Assembly (NCBI RefSeq): GCF_035084215.1
Contig: NC_090336.1
Span: 28,954,001-29,018,000, forward strand
DNA from: Heptranchias perlo
Lineage: Eukaryota
Reading direction: 5' to 3'
DNA length: 64,000 nt
In this document: positions 1-52,409 of the stretch, one piece after another
Position numbering within the stretch: the first letter of the stretch is position 1
How the letters are laid out: every line of letters begins with the position of its first letter
Notes under the pieces: generated by a model
Database searches by the model: none
What the model saw: the letters and a program-made list of their open reading frames with translations, nothing else
Told to the model about the DNA's origin: nothing
Program-made: the position numbers and the translations under genes

Positions 1-2922
1 CCTTTTGTATCTCTCCCCTCTCACCTTAAATCTATGCCCCCTCGTTATAGACTCCCCTACCTTTGGGAAAAGATTTTGACTATCTACCTTATCTATGCCC
101 CTCATTATTTTATAGACTTCTATAAGATCACCCCTAAACCTCCTACTCTCCAGGGAAAAAAGTCCCAGTCTGTCTAACCTCTCTATAAGTCAAACCATCA
201 AGTCCCGGTAGCATCCTAGTAAATCTTTTCTGCACTCTTTCTAGTTTAATAATATCCTTTCTATAATAGGGTGACCAGAACTGTACACAGTACTCCAAGT
301 GTGGCCTCACCAATGCCCTGTACAACTTCAACAAGACATCCCAACTCCTGCATTCAATGTTCTGACCAATGAAACCAAGCATGCTGAATGCCTTCTTCAC
401 CACCCTATCCACCTGTGACTCCACTTTCAAGGAGCTATGAACCTGTACTCCTAGATCTCTTTGTTCTATAACTCTCCCCAACGCCCTACCATTAACGGAG
501 TAGGTCCTGGCCCGATTCGATCTCCCAAAATGCATCACCTCACATTTATCTAAATTAAACTCCATCTGCCATTCATCGGCCCACTGGCCCAATTTATCAA
601 GACTATCCCGTTGCAATCCTAGATAACCTTCTTCACTGTCCACAATGCCACCAATCTTGGTGTCATCTGCAAACTTACTAACCATGCCTCCTAAATTCTC
701 ATCCAAATCATTAATATAAATAACAAATAACAGCGGACCCAGCACCGATCCCTGAGGCACACCGCTGGACACAGGCATCCAGTTTGAAAAACAACCCTCT
801 ACAACCACCCTCTGTCTTCTGTCGTCAAGCCAATTTTGTATCCAATTGGCTACCTCACCTTGGATCCCGTGAGATTTAACCTTGTGTAACAACCTACCAT
901 GCGGTACCTTGTCAAAGGCTTTGCTGAAGTCCATGTAGACCACGTCTACTGCACAGCTCTCATCTATCTTCTTGGTTACCCCTTCAAAAAACTCAATCAA
1001 GTTCGTGAGACATGATTTTCCTCTCACAAAACCATGCTGACTGTTCCTAATTAGTCCCTGCCTCTCCAAATGCCTGTAGATCCTGTCCCTCAGAATACCC
1101 TCTAACAACTTACCCACTACAGATGTCAGGCTCACCGGTCTGTAGTTCCCAGGCTTTTCCCTGCCGCCCTTCTTAAACAAAGGCACAACATTTGCTACCC
1201 TCCAATCTTCAGGCACCTCACCTGTAGCGGTGGATGATTCAAATATCTCTGCTAGGGGACCCGCAATTTCCTCCCTAACCTCCCATAACGTCCTGGGATA
1301 CATTTCATCAGGTCCCGGAGATTTATCTACCTTGATGCGCATTAAGACTTCCAGCACCTCCCTCTCTGTAATATGTACACTCCTCAAGACATCACTATTT
1401 ATTTCCCCAAGTTCCCTAACATCCATGCCTTTCTCAACCGTAAATACCGATGTGAAATATTCATTCAGGATCTCACCCATCTCTTGTGGTTCCGCACATA
1501 GATGACCTTGTTGATCCTTAAGAGGCCCTACTCTCTCCCTAGTTACTCTTTTGCCTTTTATGTATTTGTAGAAGCTCTTTGGATTCTCCTTTGCCTGATC
1601 TGCCAAAGCAATCTCATGTCCCCTTTTTGCCCTCCTGATTTCTCTCTTAACTCTACTCCGGCAATCTCTATACTCTTCAAGGGATCCACTTGATCCCAGC
1701 TGCCTATGCATGTCATATGCCTCCTTCTTTTTGACTAGGGCCTCAATCTCCCGAGTCATCCAAGGTTCCCTACTTCTACCAGCCTTGCCCTTCACTTTAT
1801 AAGGAATGTGCTTACCCTGAACCCTGGTTAACACACTTTTGAAAGCCTCCCACTTACCAAACGTCCCTTTGCCTGCCAACAGACTCTCCCAATCAACTTC
1901 TGAAAGTTCCTGTCTAATACCATCAAAATTGGCCTTTCCCCAATTTAGAATTTTAACTTTTGGGCCAGACCTATCATTCTCCATAGCTATCTTAAAACTA
2001 ATGGAATTATGATCACTGGTCCCAAAGTGATCCCTCACCAACACTTCTGTCACCTGCCCTTCCTTATTTCCCAAGAGGAGGTCAAGTTTTGCCCCCTCTC
2101 TAGTCGGGCCATCCACATACTGAATGAGAAATTCCTCCTGAATACACTCAACAAATTTCTCTCCATCCAAGCCCCTAATGCTATGGCTGTCCCAGTCAAT
2201 GTTGGGAAAGTTAAAGTCCCCTCCTATTACCACCCTATTTTTCTTGCAGCTGTCTGTAATCTCCTTCCATATTTGCTCCTCAATTTCCCATTGACTATTT
2301 GGGGGTCTGCAGTACAATCCTATCAAAGTGATCTCTCCCTTCTTATTTTTCAGTTCTACCCATATCGACTCAGTGGGCGAACCCTCGGATATATCCCCTC
2401 TCACTACTGCCGTGATGTTCTCCCTAATCAAGAACGCAACTCCCCCTCCTCTCTTACCTCCTGCTCTATCTTTCCTATAGCATCTGTGCCCTGGAACATT
2501 GAGCTGCCAGTCCTGCCCCTCCCTTAGCCATGTTTCAGTAATAGCTATAACATCCCAGTCCCATGTACCCATTCATGCCCTGAGTTCATCTGCCTTGCCC
2601 ATCAGACTTCTTGCATTGAAATAAATGCAGTTTAATCTAGACTTCCCTTGGTCTTTGCCCTGCTTTCTCAGACCATCTGTCCGGTCATGTTTTGTACACT
2701 CTCCTTTACTGCCTTTTGTTTCTGTCACCACTTTATTTCCCACTGACTTCCTGCATTGGTTCCCATCCCCCTGCCACATTAGTTTAAACTCTCCCCAACA
2801 GCACTAGCAAACACTCCCCCTAGGACATTGGTTCCAGTTCTGCCCAGATGCAGACCGTCCAATTTGTACTGGTCCCACCTCCCCCAGAACCGGTTCCAAT
2901 GGCCCAGGAATTTGAATCCCTC
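1..2922 (-). mobile_element. CR1 LINE, 5'-truncated, nearly intact ORF2 (APE endonuclease + RT); runs off the window start
   Basis: ORF 143..2572 has EN motifs (ITETW, GDFN, SDH) and RT motifs (PGPD, DFSKAFD, VPQGSVLGP, FADD). The EN start (YFNARS) lies in 2573..2779 behind one in-frame stop. Bases ~2785-2920 encode the esterase-like ORF1 end (GHWNRFWGRWDQYKLDGLHL). Confidence 0.95.
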
Positions 2923-6976: not shown

Positions 6977-9197
6977 GTAACATTAGCAGTGAAATAACAT
7001 GCAACAGCAGCACAGGGAAGCCACTAACTAAATCAGTACTTTTGTGATAGCTAATCCTCAACTATGTTTTAGAATAAATGTGTTCTATGTACTCCCCTTT
7101 GTGAAGGGGATATCGTTTGATCAACTTGTTTTTTATGATTTGTTTCAGTTCATTGTAAACATAAACTTTCCATAGAGAGAGAACAACAAACACAAACAAA
7201 TGGGTGAGAGTAAAAGAAGATTGGGTGGACTGTAAAATGGGCTGTCGATTTGCTATTGCCCATTTTGCGCTACTGCTCAGGACAAATTTCACCTCCATTA
7301 AGTCAGACTCTGAATCGGAAGTTATAACAGGAATTATGATTTTTTTTCCAAATGATTTTGAAACAAGCTGGAGCATGTTTTGACAAGAAAACTATTTTCA
7401 AGTTTTTATTTTTAGTTCAGAGCCAGAGGTTGCAGGGTGAAAAGATTAGAGAGGGAAATTAAATGGTTACTGCACCTGTCTTTTTAAATTTATATTGAGA
7501 ATTGAAAAATGACAATGGTTCACAGATTTATTTATGCAGTTATGATAACTTTTGTTTATCTGTCTACTTTCAGAGAATAAGAAAAAAATAATTTATTTTT
7601 AGGAACCAATCAGAAACACTTGCTTCACTGTCTCCGAGCAGAACTCTTACAAACTTCTTTCATTCAGGACGTACATCCTTCCCATTTCCACACACTAGTA
7701 CCCCACTTTGGAACAGCATTACCCAAGGCACCATCTTCTGCTTCCTCCTGATCCCTGATTTTCCACTCCCTCTCAGGCTGGGTCTCCAGACCCTTCCCCC
7801 CACCACTTTCTTCCTCACTTCCATCACCTCCCAGATAGCCTCTCCTAACTGATTGCAACACTTAGCTCCAACCTGGTACATGTTGGTGTTGTATCCTGGC
7901 TTTTGAAAAAGATAATGGATAAAAACTGAGTACATAGTTAAAGGAACATGATAATAATCAAGGCCATTGATTTATGGTTTTCACAGAATCATGGAATTTG
8001 ATTCCCAAAACACTGGTAAAATTCCAGGATGCCATATAATATGCAATTTGGTTTATTCAGTCACCCTTGATAATAATACACTGTGTGTTACATGGCATAA
8101 TACCCTGCTATAAGATAGCATATTCTCTGATTCACTGAGTCAAGAGATCCACTAATCCATTTAAAAGTTTTGAAAGCATCTGTTACAATTCAGATATCAC
8201 ACTTCAAAATATTAAAATTATATTTTAAAAAAACATTTATTTCATGCGGAGGTAAATGATAGGTTAATCTCAGTTAGTGAGGGATGTTTGCAGATTTACC
8301 TGCGGCTAGATGTTTACAAGTATTTGGCAATCCACAAGTTTCCCTCACTTTACAATAAATAACTCGTAATTGACCACAGGACTTAGTTATACCTCATGTC
8401 CATGGAGCATGGACACAAAGGAACTGGCCAGGTTAGTAGGTAAACATTACATTAATGCTGAAGACTCCAGATTACCTGTGAGCATCGAAATCAGCTTGTG
8501 GTTACAAAATATTACACCCCATGGATTCAGTGCAGTGAAAGCTCACTGGGAGCTTAAGTATAGATGAGATAGGTGGTGTGGGAAGCACATCATACAAATA
8601 CAATCAAGAAAGGCTCACCATTTGAGTCATACAGGCTAGGAAGCTCTCAGGCTCAACTGTTGGTCTTTGCTGAGTAAGCTGGGGTTTGATTTTAAACCGG
8701 AACTGCGGGTGCGTTGGGGGCGGGACGGCAAAGAAAATTGCAATTTCCAGGAGCGGGCAGAAATCCCGGCTCGAACACACCTAAGAATGCGCACAACCCA
8801 GAGTCATTTGGGTGCAATTAAAGCCGGCGGGACGATATTTAAACAAGCAATTCAAGTACTTGAAGTACTTGAAATGTACATGAATCTAATTTAGAGTGAA
8901 GGCAATCAGTTTCAACGCTGCTTCAGCATGATTTCCATGCTGTGTGAAACATGCCATGGGGAATGAGTCGATTTTCAGCCGACAGCCATTTGGACATTTA
9001 AATGCCTGTTTGACAGATGGGGATAAAAGGTGAGTTATTGCAGCAGGGCACTCAGTTCTCTCAGACAAACCTTTGGCTGGGAGATCTTTGTGTTTAGACT
9101 GAGAATTCTTGATTTCCACTCAGAATTCTTCTGTTTACACATATTTATCAACTTTTCGGACCCCCTCAAACTGACACAGGATTGGGGGGGGGGCACC

Positions 9198-10362
9198 ATG
9201 GCTGCATTCATCAGTACATCCGAGGAGGAGGAACATCACCATCCTCTCCAGGCACGGCGTGCACTTCTGCCACTTGTAGCTCCACAACACAGTGCTGCAC
9301 CACAGGCACCTGCACAAGAGTACAGAGGACAACAACAGAGGGACCGATATCACAGGAGGCACTACCCTCGTCAGAGGGTCTACAGACCGAAGCTCAGCTT
9401 CCTACACATCTCTGAGGAGCAGTACATTGGAGGCTGAGAGTGAGTCGCCAGGTGGTCGCAGACATCTGCAGCCTCCTTCATGCAGAGCTGCTCCCAGCTG
9501 GGCCTGGCAGCATCTCATTGCCCATCGCAATTAAAGTGACCACTGCCTCCAGATCATTCCACAATGCCACCGGTGACATCGCCTGCACACAAGTGCATAA
9601 AGCAGGTCACCGACATCTTGTTTCGCAGAGCCTCGCAATACGTAAACTTCCCCATGGATGACCCCAGCCAGACGGAGAGGACAGTGGGATTCCACTCTGT
9701 GGCTGGTTTCCCACGTATACAGGGTGCAATCGATTGCACCCATATAGCAATCCAAGCACCTCTACACGAGCCAGGACTGTTCATCAACAGAAAGGGGTAT
9801 CACTCCATCAACACTCAGCTTGTTTGTGACCGCTGCAAAAGATTTCTTCTCGTGTGCGCCAGATTCCCTGGCAGCTGCCATGATTCGTTCATTCTGAGGG
9901 AATCCAACATCCCGGCCCTCTTCCATGCACCAGACACCCTTAAGGGCTGGCTCCTCGGGGACAAGGGATACCCCCTGCACACGGGGCTCATGACACCTCT
10001 GAGGAACCCCATCAGCGAGCAACAGCTTCAATTCAACGACAGCCACATCGCCACCAGGTCTATAATTGAACATGCGATAGGACTGCTGAAGATGCGATTT
10101 TGGTGCCTCGATCGTTCTGGGGGAGCGCTTCAATACGTACCAGCGAGAGTGGGTCACATTATAGTACTGTGTTGTGCCCTGCACAACATGGCGCAACAGA
10201 GAGGGGTACCGGTTGAGGAGGCCTCATCCACCATCCACATCAGCCATCCACATTGAGGAGGAGCAGGAGCAGGAGGAGGACGACGAACACATGGGCAGAG
10301 CAGCAGCTCACCTGGCTGCTCGTGAGGCCAGGGAGTCACTCGCATGTGAACGGTTCGCGTAA
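9198..10362 (+). pseudogene. Harbinger (HARBI1-like) DDE transposase, frameshifted
   Basis: ORF 9564..10256 keeps GAIDCTH, LLGDKGY and RSIIEHAIGLLKMRF. The N-terminal part is split over other frames. Confidence 0.9.
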
Positions 10363-10679
10363 GATCAGAAAGTGAGAAGAGTCCAGTCCTCACACCACCT
10401 GGAAAGACCAGCGCCAACATCAGCCCTGCCCTCCCTCGTTGCACAAAACAGTCCTGCAACTACACATACACCCACTGTAAAGTGACCCATTGGGTGGCAT
10501 CAAGTGTCGCCATTCATGATGAAGCACATGAAAGGGCCCTATCACAAAAGCCAGTCAAGAATGGGCAAGGCGTGGCAGCAGTGGTGAGAATGATAACATT
10601 TAATGTGACTTTAACAAAAAACAAATATAAATGCAAAACATGACCATCTGTCAGACGCCCTTGTGCATACCCTTTGTGA

Positions 10680-11797
10680 TCACAAATCCTTAGCCTTTCT
10701 CTTCCTACCACTTCTATGTGGTGCATCCCCTGTGGCTGCAGCAGAGGTAGTGGCAGGTTGCTCACTTGTGTGTGGTGACTCGCCAGGTGCCAACCCAACT
10801 AACTGACTACTAGCACCCACTGAGGTGTGAGTATCTGCGCTGGTGGATGGCTCGCTAAGATGTGATGGTGCATCCCCAGAGGCGGGGAGCTCCTCTGAGG
10901 AATTGCCCTCTCCCGTCACTGCAGTCGTTGAAAGGCTTGCGAGAGAACAGAAGGCAATATTAAGCATCATCACGGATGTGTCATGTTGTGATGAGCATAC
11001 TGAGGTGTTCAACATGCCAATCACTGTTAACATCAATTCATGTTGTGTGTGATGAATGTTAAAGTTGTGTCATCAGACGTTTGTGGGGTACCAGTCTCGG
11101 CGTCCCCGATGGACAGGCATTCAAGGGTGTGGCTGATCTGCAGGGCCTCCTCCTTCGCGTCTGTGAGGACCACTATTTGTGGCCCCCTTCCAGCCCTCTC
11201 CCTCTCACGTGTATTTTGCGCTCTCTTCTAGAAGAGGAGAAAGTACAGATGTGTGAATGAGTGATGGTGAAGTGGCCAACCGATTAATGCATTGCTTTGG
11301 ATGAGGCTGACTGTGAAAGAGTTGTATCAGACAGAGACATCACATTGGATCTGGATTGGGGTGAGTGGTAGGGGTGGGGTCACAAATGGGGAGGTGAGGA
11401 AGTGCTCAGGAAGTGAAGGTAACTTGAGAATGAGCCTTAAGTGGGTGTGAGGAGTGATGTGATGGAGTAGTCTTGACAGTGCAGAATGAGTTGCGGGATA
11501 GGGGGAGGGGTTGGGGGGGTGATGTGGAACACAGAATGCAGGAGAATCAGTAAGTGTACTCATTTTTGCTGACCTAGTTAGATCATTGAAATGCTTCCTG
11601 CACTGGACCCAAGTGCGGGATATGTTGCTTCTGATGGTGACCTCCTCTGCCACCTCGAGCCAGGCCTTCTTGGTGGCAGAGGCTTCCTCCTGTCAGACGG
11701 TAAAATAGTTCCCTCCTCCTCCTCACCCCGGCCAGTAACAACTGAAGTGAGGCTTCGCTGAATTTTGGAGCAGCCTTGCCCCTGTGCTGCTCCATTG
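10680..11797 (-). pseudogene. Harbinger Myb/SANT-like (NAIF1/MSANTD-type) DNA-binding protein, multi-exon, disrupted
   Basis: MEQHRGKAAPKFSEASLQLLL...W.EVAEEVT...RTWVQCRKHFNDLTRSAK, then a second exon (KRAQNTRERERAGRGP) at ~11090-11229. Has a frameshift, and the first donor is mutated to ATGAGT. Confidence 0.8.
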
Positions 11798-12106
11798 GGT
11801 CTTCTGGCTCTTTGCTCCAGCAAAATCCACTGGAGCAATGGCCCTTTAAATCTAGATGCTCCAGCTGACAGCCTGTCATGCGGGTGCGCAGTCCGCCCAC
11901 TGCGCAGCTTTCGGACGGCAAATCCGGAAACAAGGTTAGGGGCACCAATTAAGTCGCGATAGCGTGGGGAATGGTAAATTTTTATTATTCGGGTTTGCCA
12001 TGCGCCCTTTGACTCCCCCGCTGCCATCCTGCTGCCCTTTTAAAATTGAGCCCCTGATCTCTGCTGAGGCAGACATGGGGATGGTATAATTGGCTTCTAA
12101 TTCCAG

Positions 12107-14162
12107 GGGCCCGATGTTAGCAGGGCTGTGGGTTCTCGGCGGGGGGGCTATCGGGCGCGTGGGTAATGCGCCCGGTGAAATTAGTCAGTTTCTCGCGCGA
12201 TTGTAGGATCCAATCCACTAATTGGATCCACTTACCTGCTCCTCCGGGTTCCCCACTGCTGATCTGCGCGTCGGGCGGACTGCGCATGCACAGTAAGATC
12301 TGTCAGCTGGAGGCGCTCTATTTAAAGGGGCAGTCCTCCACTGACAGATGCTGCAACAAATAGCAAAAATTACAGCATGGAGCAGCCCAGGGGGAAGGCT
12401 GCTCCCAGTTTAATGATGCCTCACTCCAGGTATCAATGCATGGGGTGAGGAGGAGGGGGGGAACAGAGATCTTCCTCCCGGCGTGCGGGAGGAAGCGGCC
12501 TGCTTCTGCCACCAGGAAGGCCTGGCTCGAGGTGGCAGAGGAGGTCACCAGCGCAACCAACATATCGCCCACCTGCATACAGTGCAGGAGGCGCTCCAAT
12601 GACCTCAGTAGGTCAGCCAAAGTGAGTACACGTAGTCTTTCCCCCACACTCCGTCTGCCACATCACCGCCCCCACCCCACATCTCCTTCAGCACTGCCAA
12701 CACAACTCTGTCACATCACCCCTCATACCCACTCAAACCTCATCCGCATCTTACCTGCACCTACTCACCTCGCCAGTACTCATCCCGCCACTACCACTCA
12801 ACCCAATCCTCATACAATCTCATGGCTCTCTCTCATACTCACCCTCTTGTGCATCTCTTTCATGGCCAGCCTCACTCAACCTGCCACTACCTGTGCTGCA
12901 GCCACAGGGCATGCATCACATATGTGCAGTAGGCAGCGTAAGGCAAACGTGTCGTGAGCATGAAGGGGATGCACAAGGGTGTCTGAGGGTTTGCCATGGG
13001 TGTTACTTATATTGAATTTCTGACCAACTCACATTACATATTATATTGGCACCACTACTGCCATGTCTTCGCGAATCCTGTCTGGTTTGTGCAATAATGC
13101 CCGCTCCTGAGGATCACTATGAGGACCCACAACTGATGCCACCCATTGTGTCACTGCAGAGTGGGTGTAGGTGTATTTGCAGGACTCTTCTGTGCAGACG
13201 ACTGGGAGACATCGGTGATGTGCCCGGTTGCACCCTGGAAGGATGCGAAGGAGAAGTTGTTGAGGGCAGTGGTGACTTTGACAGCGACAGGTAAGAAGAT
13301 GGTGCTCGGGCCAGCCAGGAGCAGCTCGGCATGAAGGAGGCTGCAGATGTCCACGACTACATGTCGAGTGACTCTGAGCCTCCGTGTGCACTGCTGCTCA
13401 GAGAGGTCCAGGAGGCTGAGCCTCAGTCTGTGGACCCTGTGGTGAGGGTAGTGCCCTCTGTGACGCATCTCCCTCTGCGGTTGCCCTCCCTCCTGCTGTG
13501 CAGGTGGATGTGTCACAGCACTGTGTTGTGGAGCTCCACGTGTCAGAGGTGGATGGCGAGGCTGGTGAGGCTGGTGATGCTGTTCGCCCTCCGAGGAGGT
13601 CATGACTGCAGCTACGGCGGCCCCCATCCGCAAGATGTACATCTGAGGGGGTCCGCAAGGTAGGTACATGTCTCCGGACCCCAGGGTAAGTGTGCAGGTT
13701 GGTGACTTTGACTGTCAGGAGGAGGGTGGTGGAGGCCAAACTTTGTCCCAAGTGACAGAGTGGCCTCCTGCAATGGGTGAGGGTCTCTCCCCCACCCCCC
13801 CACCTGTCAAATGGACCTTTGCAGCTGCCACAGGCTGACAGCTGCAACACGTCCATTTGATCTGGGAGTGTTTCCCCCAGTGTGGGCAACAGTCCCAGTT
13901 TGTTCCAAAATCCCACATAATCCCTTAATCAGGTCAGTTAATGACCTGAAATACCTAAATAAATACTGTCAAGTGGCATCCCTCTGGCTTTAATTGCCTG
14001 CGGGATTCCCACCAGCGGGGGCTGCGCGCGCACGCCGGCGCGTCAGCGGGGAACCCGGAAGTGCGCGGGTTCGGGGCGGGCTCCGGTACCGCGCCGGAAT
14101 TCTCTGATTTTCGGAGCCCCCCCGCCAGGATCGCACCGGTAGCGGGTGCTAAAATAGAGCCC
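12107..14162 (-). mobile_element. Non-autonomous Harbinger (~2.05 kb internal-deletion derivative); strand given for the transposase remnant
   Basis: TIR-like ends (GGGCCCGATGTT / AAAATAGAGCCC). Myb exon 1 on + (~12377-12621) and transposase N-terminus on - (13151..13669). Inverted copy of 50361-52409. No clean TSD. Confidence 0.88.
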
Positions 14163-18326: not shown

Positions 18327-18477
18327 GTAAGTATTAACTGTTTTCAATAGACTTGGAATGGTAACGGGGTACAGGTTCTTGGGTTTTATTGATTGTAGAT
18401 GAAGCAGGGCAGTATTTTCAATAGGAAAAAAGGTTTTTTTTTTCCCAGGGAATTTGAGTTGCACAGGACATTGAATT

Positions 18478-18904
18478 GTTCATTAATGAGGCCTTCACTG
18501 ACAAGGCCGACATTTATAGCCCATCCCTAGTTACCTTGAAAAAGTGGTGGTGGGCCGCCTTCTTGAACCGTTGGTAGTGATTTGATACAACTGCCGCTTT
18601 AGAAGGCAGTTAAGAGTCAACCACACTGGTGTGGGACTGGAGTCACGTATAGGCCAGACCAGGTAAGGACAGCAGGTTTCCTTCCCTGAAGGACAATAGT
18701 GAACCAGTTAGATTTTTACAAGAGTCGACAGCTTCATGGTCACTTTTACTGATACCAGCCTTTTATTTCCCAGATTTTGTTTTTTCAAAACTGAATTCAA
18801 ATTCTCAAACTGCCATGGGGGCATTTGAAATCACATTCCATGAATTATTAGTCCAGACCTCTGGAATACCAGGCCAATAACATAATCACTACACCACCAT
18901 ACCC
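18478..18904 (-). mobile_element. tRNA-headed SINE (resembles the shark DeuSINE/SacSINE1 type)
   Basis: The reverse complement is a degenerate A/B-box head plus a body matching 45547-45875 (40-nt exact match agggaaggaaacctgctgtccttacctggtctggcctata) plus a tail matching the LINE 3' end at 28844-28920. Family name recalled, not searched. Confidence 0.85.
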
Positions 18905-27764: not shown

Positions 27765-28975
27765 GAGTGGAAACAGGACAGACAGCCACTCAAGCCTGTT
27801 TCATCATTCAATTAGATCCTGGCTGATCTGGATCTTAACTCCATTTACCCACCTTGGTTCCATATCCCTTAATACCCTTGCCTATCAAAAATCTATCAAT
27901 CTCGGTTTTCAAATTTTCAATTGATTTAGTCTCAACAGCTTTTTGGGGGAGAGAGTTCCAGATTTTCACTACCCTTTGTGTGAAGACGTGCTTCCTGACC
28001 ACCCCTCAATGGCCTAGCTCTAATTTTAAGGCCCCCTTGTTCTGAATTCTACCACCAGAGGAAATAGTTTCTCTCTATCTACGCTATTAGTCCTTTAATC
28101 ACCTTAAACACGCATGCAGCAAGACCTAGACAACATCCAGGCTTGGGCTGATAAGTGGCAAGTAACATTCGCACCAGACAAGTGCCAGGCAATGATCATC
28201 TCCAACAAAAGAGAGAGTCTAACCACCTCCCCTTGACATTCAACTGCATTACCATCGCCGAATCCCCCACCATCAACATCCTGGGAGTCACCATTGACCA
28301 GAAACTTAACTGGACCAGCCATATAAATACTGTGGCTATGAGAGCAGGTCAGAGGCTGGGTATTCTGCGGCGAGTGACTCACCTCCTGACTCCCCAAAGC
28401 CTTTCCACCATCTACAAGGCACAAGTCAGGAGTGTGATGGAATATTCTCCACTTGCTTGGATGAGTGCAGCTCCAACAACACTCAAGAAGCTCAACACCA
28501 TCCAGGACAAAGCAGCCCGCTTGATTGGCAGCCCATCCACCACCCTAAACATTCACTCCCTTCACCACCAGCGCACTGTGGCTGCAGTGTGTACCATCCA
28601 CAGGATGCACTGCAGCAACTCGCCAAGGCTTCTTCGACAGCACCTCCCAAACCCGCGACCTCTACCACCTAGAAGGACAAGAGCAGCAGGTGCATGGGAA
28701 CAACACCACCTGCACGTTCCCCTCCAAGTCACACACCATCCTGACTTGGAAATATATCGTCGTTCCTTCATCGTTGCTGGGTCAAAATCCTGGAACTCCC
28801 TTCCTAACAGCACTGTGGGAGAACCTTCACCACACGGACTGCAGCGGTTCAAGAAGGCGGCTCACCACCACCTTCTCAAGGGCAATTAGGGATGGGCAAT
28901 AAATGCCGGCCTCGCCAGCAACGCCCACATCCCATGAACGAATAAAAAAAACCTCAATCAGATCACCCACTAATC
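27765..28975 (-). mobile_element. CR1 3' fragment interrupted by the LINE at 28111-28951
   Basis: Similar to 22740-23110; the host sequence ccttaaacac|ctcaatcagatcaccc is split by the insert. Confidence 0.7.
28111..28951 (+). mobile_element. L2/CR1-group LINE (second family), 3' fragment with complete tail
   Basis: ORF 28155..28889 (DQKLNWTSHIN...YKAQVRSVMEY...HLLKGN*), then AATAAA and an A tail. Confidence 0.9.
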
Positions 28976-32230: not shown

Positions 32231-32374
32231 GTGAGTCTTAAGCCGCGCTCTTGCTCTCTCTCCTCTCCTCTCTCTTAAACCGGCGGTAAACCCCGCCTGA
32301 CGGGATCCTTTCCCCCCCACTCCCACTCCACTCCCACTCCCACTCTCTCTTTCTCCTCTCCCCCCTGCCCTCAG
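32231..32374 (+). other. Predicted 144-bp 5' UTR intron of the Kir6 gene
   Basis: AAG|GTGAGT donor, CTGAC branch-like motif, long pyrimidine tract, and CAG acceptor 14 nt before the ATG. Confidence 0.7.
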
Positions 32375-32388
32375 GCGATGGGCCGGAG

Positions 32389-33597
32389 ATGTTGGCGAGG
32401 AAAGGCCTCATCCCGGAGGAGTACGTGCTGCGGCTGGTGGAGGACGTGTCGCGGCCCCGCTACAAGGAGCGGCAGCGCAAGGTGCGCTTCGTGGCCAAGA
32501 GCGGCGCCTGCAAGGTGGCCCACACCAACATCCGAGAGCAGGGCCGCTTCCTGCAGGACGTCTTCACCACGCTGGTGGACCTCAAGTGGCGCCACACGCT
32601 GCTCATCTTCACCATGAGCTTCCTGTGCAGCTGGCTGCTCTTCGCCATGATCTGGTGGCTCATCGCCTTCGCCCACGGCGACCTGCACCGGACCGAGCCG
32701 CACTTCGTGCCGTGCATCACCAGCCTGCGCTCCTTCACCTCGGCCTTCCTCTTCTCCATCGAGGTGCAGGTCACCATCGGCTTCGGCGGCCGCATGATCA
32801 CCGAGGAGTGCCCGGCCGCCATCACCGTGCTGATGGCGCAGAACATCGCGGGCCTGCTCATCAACGCCATCATGCTGGGCTGCATCTTCATGAAGACGTC
32901 GCAGGCCCACCGGCGGGCCGAGACGCTCATCTTCAGCAAGCACGCCGTGGTGTCGCCGAGGAACGGCCGCCTGTGCCTCATGTGCCGGGTGGGCGACCTG
33001 CGCAAGAGCATGATCATCGGCGCCAGCATCCGCATGCAGGTGGTGAGGCGGACGGCCACCGCCGAGGGCGAGGTGGTGCCGCTCGATCAGATCGACGTCC
33101 AGATCGACGGCGGCCCGGGGGGGGGAGGAGGAGGAGGCGCCATTTTCTTGGTCTCCCCGCTCATCATCGCCCACGTTATCGACCGGGACAGCCCGCTCTA
33201 CCGGCTGACGGCCGCCGACCTCCAGCGCCAGGACCTGGAGGTGATCGTCATCCTGGAAGGGGTGGTGGAGACGACCGGCATCACCACCCAGGCCCGCACC
33301 TCTTACCTGGCCGACGAGATCCTGTGGGGCCACCGCTTCGTGGCCATCGTGGGCGAGGAGGAGGGCCGCTACTCGGTCGATTACTCCAAGTTCGGCAACA
33401 CCGTCAAGGTGCCCACTCCCCCGCTCGGCGCCCGGCAGCTGGAGCGGGGCCAGCCGCCCGCTTTTTACGAGGAGGAGGACGACGACGAGGGAGGAGGAAG
33501 AAGAGGAGGAGGCGAGAAGGCCGCCACCTTCGACATCTTCCCCACGGGCAGCTCGGTGAGGAGAAGGGCCTCGGCCCCCCAGTCCGACCAAACCTGA
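32389..33597 (+). CDS. KCNJ11: ATP-sensitive inward rectifier K+ channel, Kir6.2-like, 402 aa, intronless CDS
   Basis: Kir6-specific TIGFG filter plus [22 protein letters not shown] and DYSKFGN. Short extracellular loop, no CDS intron and no RRNNS repeats favour KCNJ11 or a KCNJ11-like paralog over KCNJ8. Lies downstream of a SUR gene. Confidence 0.88.
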
Positions 33598-43022: not shown

Positions 43023-45546
43023 ACATTAACTCAACCATTATCATAATCAAATATTGATTGTTTAAAGAAAAGTGCAAGTTGTAACAATTTAAAAACTCAA
43101 CCATTTTTTTACAACTGCTTTTTTTTGCTCAGCCTAAATGTTCATTCTTGTACCTAGAAGCATAGATTACAAAAATAAGGAGGTAATGTTGAATGAACTT
43201 GTACAAGACCTTAGGCTGGAGTTTGATTACTGTGTAGAGTTTTGGACGCTCCCATCATAGAAAGGATATTAAAGCAATGAAAAGGTGCAACATTGATTCA
43301 CTGGGATGAGAAGCTAGGGCTTTTTCGCTAGAACTGAGAAGGTTAAGGTGTGCTCTGAGGTATTCAACATCGTGACGGGTTATAAAAGTAAATACTAATA
43401 GATTGTTTCCAATGGTCAGTGGAATGGTGTTGAGAAGGTACGCTTTTAAGCTAATCACAAATTTAATTAAGGGCAAGTTAGAACAAAGGTTTTTAGTGCA
43501 GCAGGCACAAAGTGAACGACTTGAGAGTTTGGTAAGTGTGGGAGTTCGGTGAAGTGGGGGAATGAGGTGCTGCTTTGCCTTGCTTTCCGCAGAGCAGTGG
43601 CGGACCTGAGCAGCAGAAGACCGAGAACGGGGATAAAAGCAACAGCAGACCTGCAACAAGAGAAAACTGCAGTGTGACGTCACAGGTGAGGCAGGTAAGT
43701 GATTGGTAGTGAATGTGGGCTACGTTTCAAGTTAACATATAGCATATAACTAAATTTTAAAAATTAAACTTAATTTAACTAATCTAATTAAACGAGGTAA
43801 GTAATTTGATTAACACTAAATTGATTAATTAAATAAATAAAATAATGGGAGAACAGGAGATGTATTGCTGCTGCAATATGTGGGAGCTTGTGGACATTTT
43901 TGTACCTAGAAGCATAGATTACAAAAATAAGGAGGTAATGTTGAACAAACTTGTACAAGACCTTAGGCTGGAGTTCATCTACATCTGCAGTAAGTGTCTG
44001 CAGCTCGAGGAACTTCGGCTCCAAGTTGAGGAGCTGGAGTCCGAGCTGCAGATATTGTGCGATATCGGGGGGGGAGAAAGCGACCTGGACATTTTGCTCC
44101 AGGAGGCAGTCACACCCCTTAGATTAACATGTGGTCAGGGACAGGAGGGTGTGACTGCAAGTGAGGCAGTAACGGGGATCCAGGAGGTAGTATTGCAGGA
44201 GCCTCAGTCCCTGCGCTTGTCCAATAGATTTGAGGATCTTGTGGACAAGTGCGGGGACTGCGGGGAGGACGAGCAAGCTGACCACGGCACCGTGGTACAG
44301 GAAGCCATTCAAGTGGGGGGAGTAAAAAGGAAGGTGGTTGTAGTAGGCGACAGTATAGTTAGGGAGAGACACTGTTCTCTGCAGCCAGGAGCATGAGTCC
44401 GAAGGCTATGTTGCCTACCCGGTGCCAGGGTTAAGGACATCTTCTCCGGACTGGAGAAGAACTTGGAGTGGGAGGGGGAGGATCCAGTTGTCGTGGTCCA
44501 TGTAGGTACCAATGACAAAGGTAGGACTAAGAAAAAGGTTCTGCTGAGAGAATTTGAGCAGCTAGGGACCAAATTAAAAAGTAGAACCACAAAGGTAATA
44601 ATCTCTGGATTATTATCTGAGCCACAAGCAAATTGGCACAGGGTCAATAGGATCAGGGAGATGAATGCATGACTCAAAGATTGGTGTGGGAGAAGTGGGT
44701 TTCGATTCGTGGGGCACTGGTACCAGTACTGGGGAAAGAGAGAGCTGTTCCGTTGGGACGGACTACACCTGAACCATGCTGGGACTAGAGTTCTAGTGAA
44801 TCGAATAACTAGGGAGGTAGATAGGGCTTTAAACTAAATAAGGTGGGGGAGGGTCCCGGTGGAGAGAAATCTAGAATGCTAAAGAGAAAAGACAAAGAAG
44901 CAGTGCAGGAAAGTGATTGGGGTGAGGATACCCAGATTGTGTCAGGAGGGGACAGAGCGCACAAACAAAAGACAACAAATAGGGTCCGGGTAAGAAAAAA
45001 TGGTAATAAGACAAATAGGGCCATAGTACATAAAAATGTTAAGATGACTAAAAATGTTAAAAAGACAAATCTAAAGGCACTATATCTGAATGCACGGAGC
45101 ATTCGTAATAAGGTAGACGAATTAACAGCACAAATAGATGTAAACGGATATGATATAATAGCAATTACAGAGACATGCTGCAGGGTGACCAAGGCTGGGA
45201 GCTGAAAATCCAAGGGTATTCGATATTTGGGAAGGACAGGCAAAAAGGAAAAGGAGGTGGGGTGGCTTTGTTAGTAAAGGATGAAATCAGAGCAATAGTG
45301 AGAAAGGACATTGGCTCAGAAAATTAAGATGTAGAATCAGTCTGGGTGAAGTTAAGAAGCACCAAGGCGCAGAAAACACTGGTGCGGGTTGTCTATATGC
45401 CTCCAAACAGTAGTGGTAATGTAGGGGATGGCACCAAACAGGAAATTAGAGATGCATGTAACAAGGGTACTACAGTAATTATGGGGGACTTCAATCTTCA
45501 TATAGACTGGCCAAACCAAATTAGCAAAACTACTGTGGAGGATAAA

Positions 45547-48059
45547 GTAGTATAGTGGTTATGTTACTGGACTAGTAATCCAGAAGCCTGGACTAATAAT
45601 CTGGAGTCTATGAGTTCAAATCTCTGCTATAGCAGCTGAGGAATTTAAATTCAATTAATTAAATACAATCTGGAATTTAAAAAACTAGTATCAGTAATGG
45701 TGGCCATGAAGCTACCGGATTGTCGTAAAAACCCATCTGGTTCACTAATGCCCTTTAGGGAAGGAAACCTGCTGTCCTTACCTGGTCTGGCCTATATGTG
45801 ACTCCAGACCACAACAATGTGGTTGATTCTTAATTGCCCTCTGAAATGGCCTAGCAAGCCACTCAGTTGTAAAATCTCGCTTAAGAAAAAGTCAAAATAA
45901 GAATAAAACCGGACGGACCACCCGGCACCGGATACGACAAATGCAAACCAAGCCCAGTTGACCCTGCAAAGTCCTCCTCACTAACATCTGGGGACTTGTG
46001 CCAAAATTGGGAGAGCTGTCCCACAGACAAGTCAAGCAACAGCCTGACATAGCCATACTCACAGAATCATACCTTTCAGCCAACGTCCCAGACTCTTCCA
46101 TCACCATCCCTGGATATGTCCTGTCCCACCGGCAGGACAGACTGACCAGAGGTGGCGGTACAGTGATATACAGTCAGGAGGGAGGGGCCCTGGGAGTCCT
46201 CAACATTGACTCTGGACCCCATGAAATCTCATGGCAATTCTGCTGCTGCTGATGGCCCACAGTGCCTTATGGATGCCCAGTTTTGAGCTGCTAGATCTGT
46301 TCTGAATCTATCCCATTTAACACGGTGATGGTGCCACTCAACACGTTGTGATGGTGTCCTCAGTGCAGACGGGACTTCGTCTCCACGAGGACTGTGCGGT
46401 GGTCACTCCAAGGCATCAGGTCAAATATGGGCAAGGAAACCTCCTGCTGATTACCACCTACTGTCCTCCCTCAGCTGATGAATCAGTCCTCCATGTTGAG
46501 AAGCACTGAGGGTTGCAAGGGCACAGAATGTAGTCTGGGTGGGAGACTTCAATGCCCATCGTCAAGAGTGGCTTGGTAGCACCACTACTGACCAAGCTGG
46601 CCGAGTCCTGAAGAACGTAGCTGCGAGACTGGACCTGCGGCAGGCGAGTGAGCGATCCAACACGAGAGAAAAACCTACTCGACCTCGTCCTCACCAATCT
46701 ACCTGTCGCAAATGCATCTGTCCATGGCAGTATTGGTAGGAGTGACCACCGCACAGTCCTCGTGGAGACGAAGTCCCGTCTTCGCAATGAGGACACCATC
46801 CAACGTGTTGTGTGGCACTATCACCGTGCTAAATGGGATAGATTCAGAACAGATCTAGCAGCTCAAAACTGGGCATCCATGAGGCATTGTGGGCCATCAG
46901 CAGCAGCAGAATTGTATTCCAGCACAATCTGTAACGTCATGGCCCAGCATATTCTTCACTCTACCATTACCAACAAGCCAGGGGATCAACCCTGGTTCAA
47001 TGAGGAGTGTAGAAGAGCATGCCAGGAGCAGCACCAGGTGTACCTAAAAATGAGGTGCCAACTTGGTGAAGATACAACTCAGGACTACATGCATGGTAAA
47101 CAGCGGAAGCAACATGCTATCGACAGAGCTAAGCGATTCCACAACCAACGGATCAGATCAAAGTTCTGCAGTCCTGCCACATCCAGTCGTGAATGGTGGT
47201 GGACAATTAAATAACGGGAGGAGGAGGCTCTATAAACATCCCCATCCTCAATGATGGCGGAGTCCAGCACGTGAGTGCAAAAGACAAGGCTGAGGCGTTT
47301 GCAACCATCTTCAGCCAGAAGTGCCGAGTGGATGATCCATCTCAGCCTCCTCCCGATATCCCCACCATCACAGAAGCCAGTCTTCAGCTAATTCGATTAA
47401 TTCCATGTGATATCAAGGAACAGCTGAGTGCACTGGATACAGCAAAGGCTACTCACCAATAACCTGCTCACCGATGCTCAGTTTGGGTTCCGCCAGGATC
47501 ACTTGGCTCCAGACCTCATTACAGCCTTGGTCCAAACATGGACAAAAGAGCTGAATTCCAGAGATGAGGTGAGAGTGACTGCCCTTGACATCAAGGCAGC
47601 ATTTGACCGAGTGTGGCACCAAGAAGCCCTAGTAAAATTGAAGTCAATGGGAATCAGAGGGAAAACTCTACAGTGGTTGGAATCATACCTAGCACAAAGG
47701 AAGATGGTAGTGGTTGTTGGAGGCTAATCATCTTAACCCCAGGACATTGCTGCAGGAGTTCCTCAGGGCAGTGTCCTCAGCCCAACCATCTTCAGCTGCT
47801 TCATCAATGACCTTCCCTCCATCATAAGATCAGAAATGGGGATGTTCGCTGATGATTGCACAGTGTTCAGTTCAATTTGCAACCCCTTAGATAATGAAGC
47901 AGTTCATGCCCGCGTGCAGCAAGACCTGGACCACATCCAGGCTTGGGCTCATAAGTGGCAAGTAATATTTGCGCCAGACAAGTGCCAGATAATGACCATC
48001 TCCAACAAAAGAGAGACTAACCACCTCCCCTTGACATTCAACAGCATCACCATCACCAT
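45547..48059 (+). mobile_element. 5'-complete copy of the second LINE family: tRNA/SINE-type head followed by a single EN-RT ORF (decayed, 3'-truncated)
   Basis: Head 45547-45875 is homologous to the SINE at 18478-18904. EN starts at KVLLTNIWGL (~45968), with GDFN and SDH. RT motifs DIKAAFD, GVPQGSVL and FADD. Confidence 0.9.
45548..45622 (+). promoter_or_regulatory. RNA polymerase III type-2 internal promoter (A box and B box)
   Basis: A box TAGTATAGTGG (45548-58) and B box GTTCAAATC (45614-22), both matching the consensus with tRNA-like spacing. Confidence 0.7.
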
Positions 48060-48218
48060 CTATCTTGTTATGGTCACTCTACCCTAAAGGACCCCGCACA
48101 ACAAGATTATTAATTAACCCCTTCTCATTCCATCTACAAGGCACATGGAATGAGAAGGGGTTAATTAATAATCTTGTTGTGCGGGGTCCTTTAGGGTAGA
48201 GTGACCATAACAAGATAG
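48060..48218. repeat. Perfect inverted repeat, 74-bp arms, 11-nt spacer
   Basis: 48060-48133 is the exact reverse complement of 48145-48218. Confidence 0.97.
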
Positions 48219-50360
48219 AATTCTTCACTAAGATGGAAACTGAAGTAGTCCAATCCGAAACTAGGGTCCTAAATCTGAACAAAGGAAACTACGATGGTAT
48301 GAGGAGTGAGTTGGCTATGATAGATTGGGGAGCTTCATTAAAAGGCATGACGGTGGATAGGCAATGGCTAACATTTAAGGAACAAATGCATGAATGCAAC
48401 AATTATACATTCCTTTCTGGCGCAAAAACACAAAAGGAAAAGCAGCCCAAACATGGCTAACAAAAGAAATTAAGGATAGTATTAGATCCAAAGAGGAGTC
48501 ATATAAAATTGCCAGAAAAAGTAGCAAGCCTGTGGATTGGGATCAATTTAGAATTCAGCAAAAAAGGACCAAGAGATTGATTAAGAGGGGAAAAATAGAG
48601 TATGAGAGTAAACTTGCAAGGAACATAAAAGTGGACTATAAAAGCTTCTACAAGTATGTAAAAAGAAAAAGATCAGTGAAGACAAATGTAGGTCCCTTAC
48701 CTTCAGAAACTGGAGAATTTATAATGGGGAACAGGGAAATGGCAGAGCAATTAAACAAATACTTTGGTTCTGTCTTCACGGAAGAGGACACAAATAACTT
48801 CCCAGAAATGCTAGAGAACCAAGGATCGAGTGAGAAGGAGGAATTAAAGGAAATTAGTATCAGTAAAAAAAAATAGTGCTGGAGAAATTAATGGGACTGA
48901 AAGCCGATAAATCCCCAGGGCCTGATAATCTGCATCCCAGAGTACTAAAAGAAGTAGCCATGGAAATAGCGGATGCATTGGTTGTCATCTTCCAAAATTC
49001 TATAGATTATGGAACAGTTCCTGCAGATTGGAGGGTGGCAAATGTAACCCCACTATTTAAAAAAAGAGGGAGAGAGAAAACAGGGAACTACAGACCGGTT
49101 AGTGTAACATCAGTAGTAGGGAAAATGCTAGAGTCCATTATAAAGGATGTGATAACAGGACATTTAGAAAATATCAACGGGATTAGACAAAGTCAACATA
49201 GATTGATGAAAGGGAAATCATATTTGACAAACCTACTCGAGTTTTTTGAGGATGTAACTGGTAGAATAAATAAGGGAGAACCAGTGGATGTGGTGTATTT
49301 GGATTTTCAGAAGGCCTTTGATAAAGTCCCACATGAGAGGTTAGTGTGCAAAATTAAAGCACATGGGATTGGGGGTAATATACTGGCATGGATTAAAAAT
49401 TGGTTAATAGACAGGAAACAGAGTCGGAATAAATGGTTCTTTTTCGGGGTGGCAGGCAGTGACTAGTGGCGTACCACAGGGATCAGTGCTTGGGCCCCAG
49501 CTATTCACAATATATATCAATGATTTGGATGAGGGAACCAAATGTAATATTTCCAAGTTTGCTGGGATCGTGAGTTGTGAGGAGGATGCAAAGAGGCTTC
49601 AAGGCGATTTAGACAAGCTGAGTGAGTGGGCAAATACATGGCAGATGCAGTATAACGTGGATAAATGTGAAGTTATCTACTTCGGAAGGAAAAACAGAAA
49701 GGCAGAGTATTAATTAAATGGTGATAGATTGGGGAATGTTGATGTACAAAGGGACCTGGGTGTCCTTGTACACCAGTCACTGAAAGCAAATATGCAGGTG
49801 CAGCAAGCAGTTAGGAAGGCAAATGGTATGTTGGCCTTCATTACAAGAGGATTTGAGAATAGGAGCAAAAATGTTTTACTGCAGTTATACAGGGCCTTGG
49901 TGAGACCACACCTGGAGTATTGTGTGCAGTTTTGGTCTCCTTACCTAAGAAAGGATATACTTGCCATAGAGGGAGTGCAGCGAAGGTTCACCAGACTGAC
50001 TCCTGGGATGGCAGGACTGTCGTATGAGGAGAGATTGGGTCGACTTGGCCTGTATTCACTTGAGTTTAGAAGACTGCGGAGAGATCTCATTGAAACATAT
50101 AAAATTCTGACAGGGCTAGACAGACTGGATGCAGGGAGGATATTTCTCCTGGCTGGGGGATCCAGAATGAGGAGTCACAGTCTCAGGATACGGGGTAGGA
50201 CATTTAGGACTGAGATGAGGAGAAATTTCTTCACTCAGAGGGTGGTGATCCTGTGGAATTCTCTACCACAGAAGGCTGTGGAGGCCAAGTCACTGAATAT
50301 ATTTAAGTAGGAGCTAGATAGATTCCTAGACAAGGGCTATGGGGAGAGAGCGGGAATATG

Positions 50361-52409
50361 GGGCTCGATTTTCGCACCCCCAAACGGGTGCATTCGTGGC
50401 GGGGGGCTGCAAAAATTGGGGATTCCCGGGGCGGGTCTGGAGCCCGGCTCCAACCCGCCCACTTCCGGGTTCCCCAGTGACGCGCTGACCTGCGCGCGCA
50501 GCCCCCGCATGTGGGACTCCCGCCGGCAACTAAAGCCAGCGCGGTTCCACTTAAAGTACTCATTAAGGTATTTCAGGTCGTTTAGAGACCTGATTAACAT
50601 GACATTTTAGGAGGGGTGGGATTTTGCAAACAACTAGGACTGTTTCCCGTACTGGGGGAAACACTCCCAGTTCAAATGGACGTGTTGCAGCCATCAGCCT
50701 GTGGCAGCTGCGAAAGTCCATTTGACAGGTGGGGGGTGGAGACCCTCACTCATTGCAGGAGGCCACTCTGTCACTTGGGACAAAGTTTGGCCTCCACCAC
50801 CCTCCTCCTAACAATAAAATTCACCAACTTGCACACTTACCCCAGTGTCCAGACACATGTACCTACCTTGCGGACCCCCTCAAATGTACATCTTCCGGAT
50901 GGGGGCCTCCATAGCTGCAGTCATGACCTCCTCGGAGGACGAACAGCATCACCAGCCTCGCCAGCCACGCCGTCCACCTCTGACACGTGGAGCTCCACAA
51001 CACAGTGCTGTGACACATCCACCTGAACAGCAGGAGGGAGGGCAACCGCAGAGAGAGATGCGTCGCAGATGGCACTATCCTCGCCACAGGGTCTACAGAC
51101 TGAGGCTCAGCTTCCTGAACCTCCCTGAGCAGCATTGCACACGGAGGCTCAGAGTCATTCAACATGTAGTCGTGGACATCTGCAGCCTCCTTCATGCCGA
51201 GCTGCTCCCGGCTGGCCCGAGCACCATCTTCTTACCTGTCGCTGTCAAAGTCGCCACTGCCCTCAACAACTTCTCCTCCGCATCCTTCCAGGGTGCCACC
51301 GGGGACATCGCCGACGTCTCTCAGTCATCTGCATAAAGGAGCCCTGCAAATACATCTACACCCACTATGCAGTGACACAATGGGTGGGATCAGTTGTGGG
51401 TCTTCATAGTGATCCTCAGGAAAGGGCATTATTGCACAAACCAGACAAGATTTGCAGAGATATGGCAGTGGTGGTGACAATATAATATGTAATGTGAGTT
51501 AATCAGAAATTAATTATAGGTAAACACCATGACAAACCCTCAAACACCCTTGTGCATCCCCTTCATGCTCACGACACGTTTGCCTTACGCTGCCTACTGC
51601 ACATATGTGATGCATGCCCTGTGGCTGCAGCACAGGTAGTGGCAGGTTGAGTGAGGCTGGCCGTGAAAGAGATGCATGAGAGGGTGAGTATGAGATAGAG
51701 CCATGAGATTGTATGAGGATTGGGTTGAGTGGTAGTGGTGGGATGAGTACTGGCGAGGTGAGTAAGTGCAGGTAAGATGAGGATGAGGTTTGAGTGGGTG
51801 TGAGGGGTGATGTGATAGAGTAGTGTTGGCAGTGCAGAAGGAGTTGTGGGGTGGGGGCGGTGATGTGGCAGACGGAGTGTAGGGGAATGAGTAAGTGGAC
51901 TCACTTCGGCTGACCTACTTAGATCATTGAAGCGCCTCCTGCACTGTATGCAGGTGCGCGATATGTTGGTGGTGCAGGTGACCTCCTCTGCCACCTCGAG
52001 CCAGGCCTTCTTGGTGGCAGAGGCAGGCCGCTTCCTCCCGCCCGCCGGGGGGAAGATCTCTGTCCTCCCCCTCCTCCTCACCCCATCTAATGATACCTGG
52101 AGTGAGGCATCATTAAACTGGGGGCAGCCTTCCCCCTGGGCTGCTTCATGCTGTAATTTTTCCTATTTGTTGCAGCATCAGTCAGTGGAGGACTGCCCCT
52201 TTAAATAGAGCTCCTCCAGCTGACAGTCTATGCTGCGCATGCGCAGTTTGCCCACTGTGCAGCTTTCCAGCGGGAAACCCGGATGCACAGTTAAGTGGAT
52301 CCAATTAGCCTGCAATTCCGTGCGGAGCACCCCGATTTCACTGGGCGCGTTACCCACGCGCCCAGTCGACCCCCCGCTGCGAACCCACTGCCCTCCTGAT
52401 ATTGGGCCC
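50361..52409 (+). mobile_element. Non-autonomous Harbinger (~2.05 kb) inserted in the CR1 3' end
   Basis: TIRs GGGCTCGATTTT / ATATTGGGCCC, TSD ATG (50358-60 and 52410-12). Transposase N-terminus 50845..51336; Myb remnant on -. Confidence 0.92.

Follow-up and report, generated by a model that had tools for sequence, protein, structure and literature searches.

SINE heads are held to derive from small RNAs and LINE RNAs to be products of Pol II, whereas it has been called unknown where the SINE body comes from (PMC5786205). Bipartite non-autonomous LINEs and the SINEs derived from them have been described, namely Bov-A/Bov-tA, WALLSI, AfroSINE and Vingi-derived elements (Kojima 2018, PMC5786205), whilst RTE, Ingi, Vingi and R2 are given as the only makers of ORF-free bipartite elements (PMC5786205). 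The statement that SINEs usually share only the 3' tail with their partner LINE, from which an earlier note on this DNA had set out, hence needs qualification, since SINEs sharing both 5' and 3' parts are known for RTE and Vingi (PMC5786205). In case of RTE-1_DAn and the LINEs related to it, a tRNA-like sequence lies inside the LINE and leads to matches with many SINE2 elements, a point made in one sentence of PMC5786205. The DeuSINEs SacSINE1 and LmeSINE1 are paired with L2-2_CM in the accessible part of PMC5499810, with a SacSINE1 length of 463 bp given in that of PMC2746220, and the V-SINE HE1 is listed together with the HER1 LINE of sharks and rays in the accessible parts of PMC3747384 and PMC4824008.

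Here we describe an unusual SINE-LINE pair from one 64-kb stretch of DNA (the window), in which the SINE is probably a bipartite LINE derivative and the LINE itself bears a tRNA head. Like the bipartite derivatives of PMC5786205, the SINE is short and would combine LINE 5' and 3' parts through internal deletion and depend on the LINE protein; in contrast to them, where the tRNA head was added later and the LINE is headless, the LINE is headed here and exhibits CR1/L2-type motifs. RTE-1_DAn resembles the headed LINE in containing a tRNA-like sequence, but belongs to the RTE clade, and PMC5786205 sets its matches aside without saying where the tRNA-like sequence lies, whether it acts as a promoter or whether a SINE derives from it. 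SacSINE1, like the SINE described here, is a shark tRNA SINE of similar size with a tail in common with a CR1/L2-group LINE, but has another head, a Deu domain and, in the accessible text of PMC5499810, a LINE homology reported for the tail only. HE1 is likewise, as far as the accessible texts go, a tRNA SINE of elasmobranchs whose tail derives from a LINE; it is however defined by its V domain, and a V motif derived from bivalves is absent from our SINE. A literature search that stopped short of most subscription papers, Repbase and Dfam did not turn up any account of a shark LINE with a tRNA head.

Composition of the SINE

The SINE-like element (Table 1) has nine non-self matches in the window, of which only two have E < 0.05 (BLASTN and local alignment): 18897 to 18598 matches the LINE 5' region at 45547-45845 (78.3% over 304 nt, E 4e-63), and 18573 to 18498 matches the LINE tail at 28842-28918 (85.7% over 77 nt, E 4e-19), the latter alignment extending to about 18471 in the SINE and 28947 in the LINE. 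LINE head and LINE tail have no mutual resemblance (local score 20). The two alignments bear out the earlier description of a reverse complement that follows 45547-45875 for ~330 nt and then switches to the LINE 3' end at 28844-28920: the SINE has suffered a 14-nt deletion, beyond which the 5' homology resumes up to 'cagttgta' at ~45872, and thus the ~330 nt are right in LINE coordinates. The same description had the head joined directly to the tail, which is correct in that both parts are those of the LINE, but ~15 nt between them (18588-18574) fit neither window copy, being unlike 45873 onwards and unlike 28830-28841. These ~15 nt do match the beginning of the spacer in the whale-shark copies P0006 and P0003 (in P0006, 'QLYQSLQ' versus 'QLYQ' in the SINE, followed by a one-base shift) as well as the loose contig ends that leave at 45871 in all four runs examined.

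Table 1. Coordinates of the SINE, the headed LINE and related copies in the window.
Feature	Position	Strand	Remarks
SINE-like element, decayed, tRNA-headed	18475..18904	-	LINE head + body + connector + LINE tail
SINE tRNA-like head	18815..18904	-	79% to 45547-45632; A and B boxes decayed
SINE AT-rich segment and body, common to LINE 5' region	18598..18814	-	72% (AT-rich) and 86% (body) to LINE head
SINE connector	18574..18597	-	body end and ~15 nt resembling LINE spacer start in other copies
SINE tail, LINE-derived	18475..18573	-	last ~14 codons of ORF and 3' UTR
LINE tRNA-like head	45541..45634	+	sole ARAGORN call in window; presumed A box 45548, B box 45614
AT-rich segment and body, common to LINE and SINE	45635..45872	+	alignment
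Spacer, shared body to endonuclease start	45873..45961	+	differs among subfamilies or species
Single APE-RT ORF, broken	45962..48057	+	inverted insert 46235-46409, internal deletion ~47450, 3' end lost
5'-truncated copy, family of headed LINE	28111..28951	+	ORF end (stop 28889), 3' UTR, A tail
RT fragment, family of headed LINE	60489..61557	-	92-93% to headed copy and tail copy; Pfam RVT_1 E 5e-25
Older-subfamily 3' fragment of LINE	62651..63290	-	72% to 28218-28951
Host two-ORF CR1	43833..50324	+	ends at 45546 on the left and resumes at ~48146 on the right

As expected of a SINE2 element, the tail is common to the partner LINE (86% over 77 nt), and the homologous LINE head, to which the decayed SINE copy is 79% identical, is tRNA-like and contains both an A and a B box; as in bipartite derivatives, the element is composed solely of LINE 5' and 3' ends. 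What sets the pair apart is that the tRNA head itself belongs to the 5' part held in common. The SINE copy has head variants that are absent from the LINE copy of the window, and its AT-rich segment and body (18598..18814) carry variants of a second head subfamily and are similar to the consensuses of the loose ends at 45601 and 45807 (X1 and X6). Contig loose ends before 45547 finish in GGGTAYG, which matches the start of the SINE copy at ~18904. The decayed head is missed by our A/B-box pattern, no clear target-site duplication was seen around either the SINE copy or the headed LINE copy, and folding of head, body and tails gave no sign of special structure (z +0.5 to -1.6).

Membership in the DeuSINE, V-SINE, MetaSINE or CORE-SINE groups is not supported. 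Two Deu motifs from the accessible part of the PMC5786205 supplement, which are short motifs and not the full consensus, have no window match at three mismatches, with their best matches in LINE head and SINE no better than those in shuffles, and the SacSINE1 head printed there (positions 2-78) differs beyond the A and B boxes when compared by eye. In case of V-SINE/HE1, the V motif from bivalve V-SINE alignments, hence not from HE1 itself, has no window match (8 mismatches out of 15 at best); MetaSINE and CORE-SINE were each tried with one 11-nt motif, a weak test in which 43-219 of 300 shuffles match equally. The source of these motifs was the PMC4824008 supplement, where the accessible part gives bivalve SINEs of the V, Meta and CORE types. 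The locus had been proposed to bear on the origin of DeuSINE-type elements and to merit alignment with SacSINE1: with the Deu motifs unmatched, and with the printed SacSINE1 head and Deu text unlike our element by eye in what is a short-motif comparison, it has no direct bearing on DeuSINE origin.

Structure and classification of the headed LINE

The head and tail matches of the SINE fall into different LINE copies, and the copy at 45547, the only headed one in the 64-kb window, is rearranged and without its 3' end. It nevertheless matches 28111-28951 directly (89.9% over 149 nt) and is linked to it via 60489-61557 at 92-93%, and thus the two copies belong to one family. The LINE head scores 21.9 bits against the Rfam tRNA model (E 0.05), which is under the gathering score of 29; its A and B boxes were assigned by what we take to be the consensus. 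The description of the LINE as Pol III-headed is therefore supported only as regards a tRNA-like head with both boxes. Within the head, a short direct repeat of anticodon-arm sequence (45567-45607) shows up in the Rfam alignment as an insert of 24 nt.

The endonuclease frame starts ~90 nt behind the shared body, leaving no room for an ORF1. Residues 4-726 of the protein P0156, which exhibits Pfam endonuclease and RVT_1 domains, map onto the broken ORF; neither the endonuclease piece of 84 aa nor the linker is recognised by Pfam. The LINE shows the features of the CR1/L2 group: APE and an RT with CR1-like motifs, no RNase H, no C-terminal zinc finger and a CR1-like C-terminal WNSLP motif, the group being delimited by criteria that we assume to apply. 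The CR1 clade proper, with its two ORFs, was rejected, with no room for ORF1 and an RT only 23-31% identical to the CR1 copies of the window (~27% in case of the host CR1); an RTE or Vingi identity was rejected on the motifs that we take to define these clades. The nearest database relatives of the ORF are unnamed endonuclease-RT proteins of ~910-990 aa (45-50%).

The headed LINE sits inside the endonuclease region of the host CR1. In its own endonuclease region, 46235-46409 repeats 46739-46914 in inverted orientation (95%). Where the insertion ends on the right (48067-48220), an inverted host copy (48067-48130) precedes ~14 nt that resemble the LINE 3' part, and the host CR1 is presumably short of ~90 nt here, judged by the CR1 protein as we assume it to be; this right-end structure is a complex insertion or repair event.

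Recurrence of the head-ORF linkage

Contigs of four of 22 runs (X1, X6, X9 and X17; organisms A, C, D and E) were aligned to 45450-46235 with the likeness set at 80%; the remaining runs, among them X20 with a share of 0.05, were excluded from the evidence. Contigs assembled from repeats may be mosaic, joints at 80% likeness are less reliable, and X1 is possibly the window's own sample. In X1, the summed contig depth, which is no copy number, amounts to 1.4-1.8 million over the spacer and 2.2-4.2 million in the ORF bins 45963-46232, the single contigs listed having depths of 26-59; in X6, X9 and X17 the depth falls within the spacer, consistent with a diverged spacer. Of the 32 contigs displayed, two span 45871 and reach at least 31 letters to either side of it, namely X1 record 2 (45809-46002) and X9 record 25 (45820-46105); two further ones, too short on the left of 45871, were left uncounted. 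With 25 other letters and 6 gaps, X1 record 2 is not the window copy. Joints from the body into the ORF (45871 to 45952) occur in 2 (X6), 10 (X9) and 1 (X17) contigs. Contigs starting at 45547, with SINEs and LINEs counted together, number 557, 774, 632 and 46 in the four runs, and the flanks before this position agree by only ~0.4, indicating that many independent insertions start there; among the 24 loose-end rows displayed (of 3,760) there was no other 5' end at the ORF start.

Gene models provide a second line of evidence: seven of the nine proteins looked up are from the whale shark, and in the seven whale-shark models that cover the ORF start, body peptides precede the endonuclease in three and probably four. 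The body peptides of P0004, P0006 and P0009 show identities of 10/14, 7/8 and 11/18 plus 13/20, respectively, and each has the body as its best match in a six-frame comparison with the window. P0003 probably also has a body peptide before the ORF, in a match that requires two frames; P0015 begins in the spacer, as P0007 probably does, and P0002 is spliced to host exons. As P0004 and P0009 look spliced, they establish the order of head and ORF and not the distance between them. With the linkage recurring both in shark-type contigs and in whale-shark gene models, the sequence data indicate that a tRNA-headed, single-ORF LINE family of the CR1/L2 group is real. An abundant LINE that carries an entire SINE head and body blurs the line between SINEs and LINEs; for shark repeat annotation, it means that heads of LINE copies would be tallied as SINEs.

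Origin of the SINE

The SINE matches ~340 bases at the 5' end and ~95 bases at the 3' end of the LINE, and probably arose through internal deletion of the LINE. This is favoured by the connector: as it matches the LINE spacer, no SINE-only sequence is left. The tail was also counted for deletion, being nearer to the young LINE tail (83% to 28847-28950) than to the old one (76.5% to 62651-62742). The direction from LINE to SINE rests on parsimony; with head, body and tail of one SINE all mapping to one coding element, it is testable by a tree.

In case of the LINE lineage, the origin of the head was approached through 80 of 442 metagenome loci, retained as distant single-ORF relatives with an RT identity to the headed LINE of 49% at best. 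ARAGORN found no tRNA in the 51 of these loci scanned and Rfam none in 17, and no pair of A and B boxes was present in the 35 loci with at least 400 nt upstream; the box scan picks up the head of the LINE but not that of the decayed SINE copy, and heads in distant relatives may therefore have escaped it too. L007 (541-3552), L001 and L002 are intact single-ORF LINEs with 44-49% RT identity and plain 5' regions that show no tRNA head, which makes them suitable as outgroups. SINE/LINE body patterns had no match in viral, prokaryote-genome or metagenome contigs, and the endonuclease query returned no loci in viral or genome contigs. Since a tRNA head was not seen in these distant single-ORF relatives, its acquisition by the LINE lineage probably came earlier. 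The earlier note had opposed internal deletion to capture, by the LINE, of the head of its own parasite; deletion is favoured for the SINE and an earlier capture for the LINE lineage, and the two are not mutually exclusive: the likely history is that the head was gained first and SINEs formed by deletion afterwards. In such a sequence of events, the LINE lineage would in the past have acquired a tRNA-derived head with A and B boxes, and one deletion sparing head and tail would have produced a ready-made SINE in a single step; Pol III would transcribe this SINE from its head, the LINE protein would recognise the tail for target-primed reverse transcription and mobilise the SINE in trans, and the long-junction type represented by the copy at 18475-18904 would then have been amplified.

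The opposite order, in which the 5' ~345 nt of a tRNA SINE that already carried the tail of this LINE were template-switched onto the LINE ORF, the LINE thereby capturing the promoter of its own parasite, and present SINEs descend from that old SINE, appears unlikely to us. It would agree with a head foreign to the LINE clade, as the headless distant relatives suggest, and with the body depth, which exceeds the ORF depth ~2-3 fold in the four runs and makes short forms look abundant; moreover, SINE module exchange by template switching is described in the accessible parts of PMC5499810 and PMC7245038. Capture from this SINE would however need a switch within a few bases of the border between SINE body and tail, and neither junction type retains a SINE-only part. 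The second of these junctions is shorter and leads from 45868-45870 straight into the tail (448 contigs in X9, 56 and 67 in X17); it could come from a long SINE instead of the LINE.

Somewhat less likely again is that the copy at 18.5 kb is a one-off, a LINE internally deleted during or after insertion that stands outside any amplified SINE family. Its long junction was seen in the window copy only when set against the contig rows displayed for the four runs: loose ends leaving at 45871 are numerous (361, 698, 701 and 83 contigs), but their consensus goes on A-rich like the LINE spacer and not into the tail. A protein search across the junction likewise gave no second example (0 matches among 3 candidates, a weak test), and other window copies of the LINE are rearranged or internally deleted. 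Against this, the copy stops cleanly at the true 5' and 3' termini of the LINE, organisms D and E have an amplified head-to-tail junction, and the loose-end rows displayed are just 24 of 3,760. A rare chimera, or the chance insertion of a SINE before a truncated LINE, is highly improbable as an account of the headed LINE at 45547 and already largely refuted: this LINE is the sole headed copy in the window, CR1-nested and heavily rearranged, with ~90 nt of host presumably missing and an inverted host duplication at the insertion, but the depth in X1 is continuous and high over the spacer, bridging contigs and joints occur in other organisms, the whale-shark models show the same head-ORF order, and the head copy has no tail whilst the ORF start is intact, so that the rare chimeras with heterogeneous junctions named beforehand as the outcome that would overturn the proposal give way to a linkage recurring across genomes.

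Transcription and coding start of the headed LINE

Returning to the headed LINE as the source of the SINE, its sequence lends itself to a further reading, which we consider possible, though it falls short of being probable: the element would be an autonomous vertebrate LINE transcribed by Pol III via a captured tRNA promoter, without ORF1, avoiding TTTT over ~3.3 kb, translated from an AUG-less frame and repeatedly shedding SINEs by single deletions, a LINE-to-SINE route outside RTE and Vingi. In the non-redundant 3,018 nt of the LINE family there is no sense-strand TTTT, compared to 4.4 expected from base shuffles (p=0.008) or 2.3 from dinucleotide shuffles (p=0.076), and TTT occurs 9 times versus 16.9 expected (p=0.012). 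For comparison, four CR1 sets from the window contain 26 T-runs in 7,788 nt, matching expectation, and the nearest relative, L007, contains 7 versus 6.6 expected. However, C-ending codons are preferred generally (77 versus 41), and the 5' 1,147 nt of the host CR1 are likewise without TTTT; the absence of TTTT is no more than suggestive of Pol III transcription. The sole in-frame ATG before the endonuclease is at 45941; in each of the four runs, its letters, like those of the stop at 45959, are in the minority, so that most copies have an open frame there without an AUG.

Such an element would resemble R2, a LINE with one ORF, possibly without a normal start codon, and with an RNA that is not a Pol II product. 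It would differ from R2 in that the latter is co-transcribed with rRNA, is site-specific, uses a different type of endonuclease and has no promoter of its own. If Pol III does make the LINE RNA, this raises the question of how an uncapped RNA of 3 kb is translated.

Further features of the window

The window has the look of shark DNA, being CR1-rich and having whale-shark gene models as its relatives. The CR1 copy at 143-2572 (minus strand), with an unbroken ORF2 stretch of 809 aa, is relatively young on that account. Several copies of one further element lie at 9139-14162 and 50361-52417, one 2-kb pair being 88% identical and inverted; its ORF at 9540-10256 is presumably a Harbinger/PIF-like nuclease. 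We take 55030-56333 (minus strand) to contain frames of a Penelope-like RT and of GIY-YIG type. An intronless ORF at 32290-33597, which in our assumption resembles the potassium channel Kir6.2 (KCNJ11), is followed by an N gap and then a GA-rich tandem repeat, and at 61690-62570 (minus strand) there are exons that by eye resemble immunoglobulin constant-type domains.
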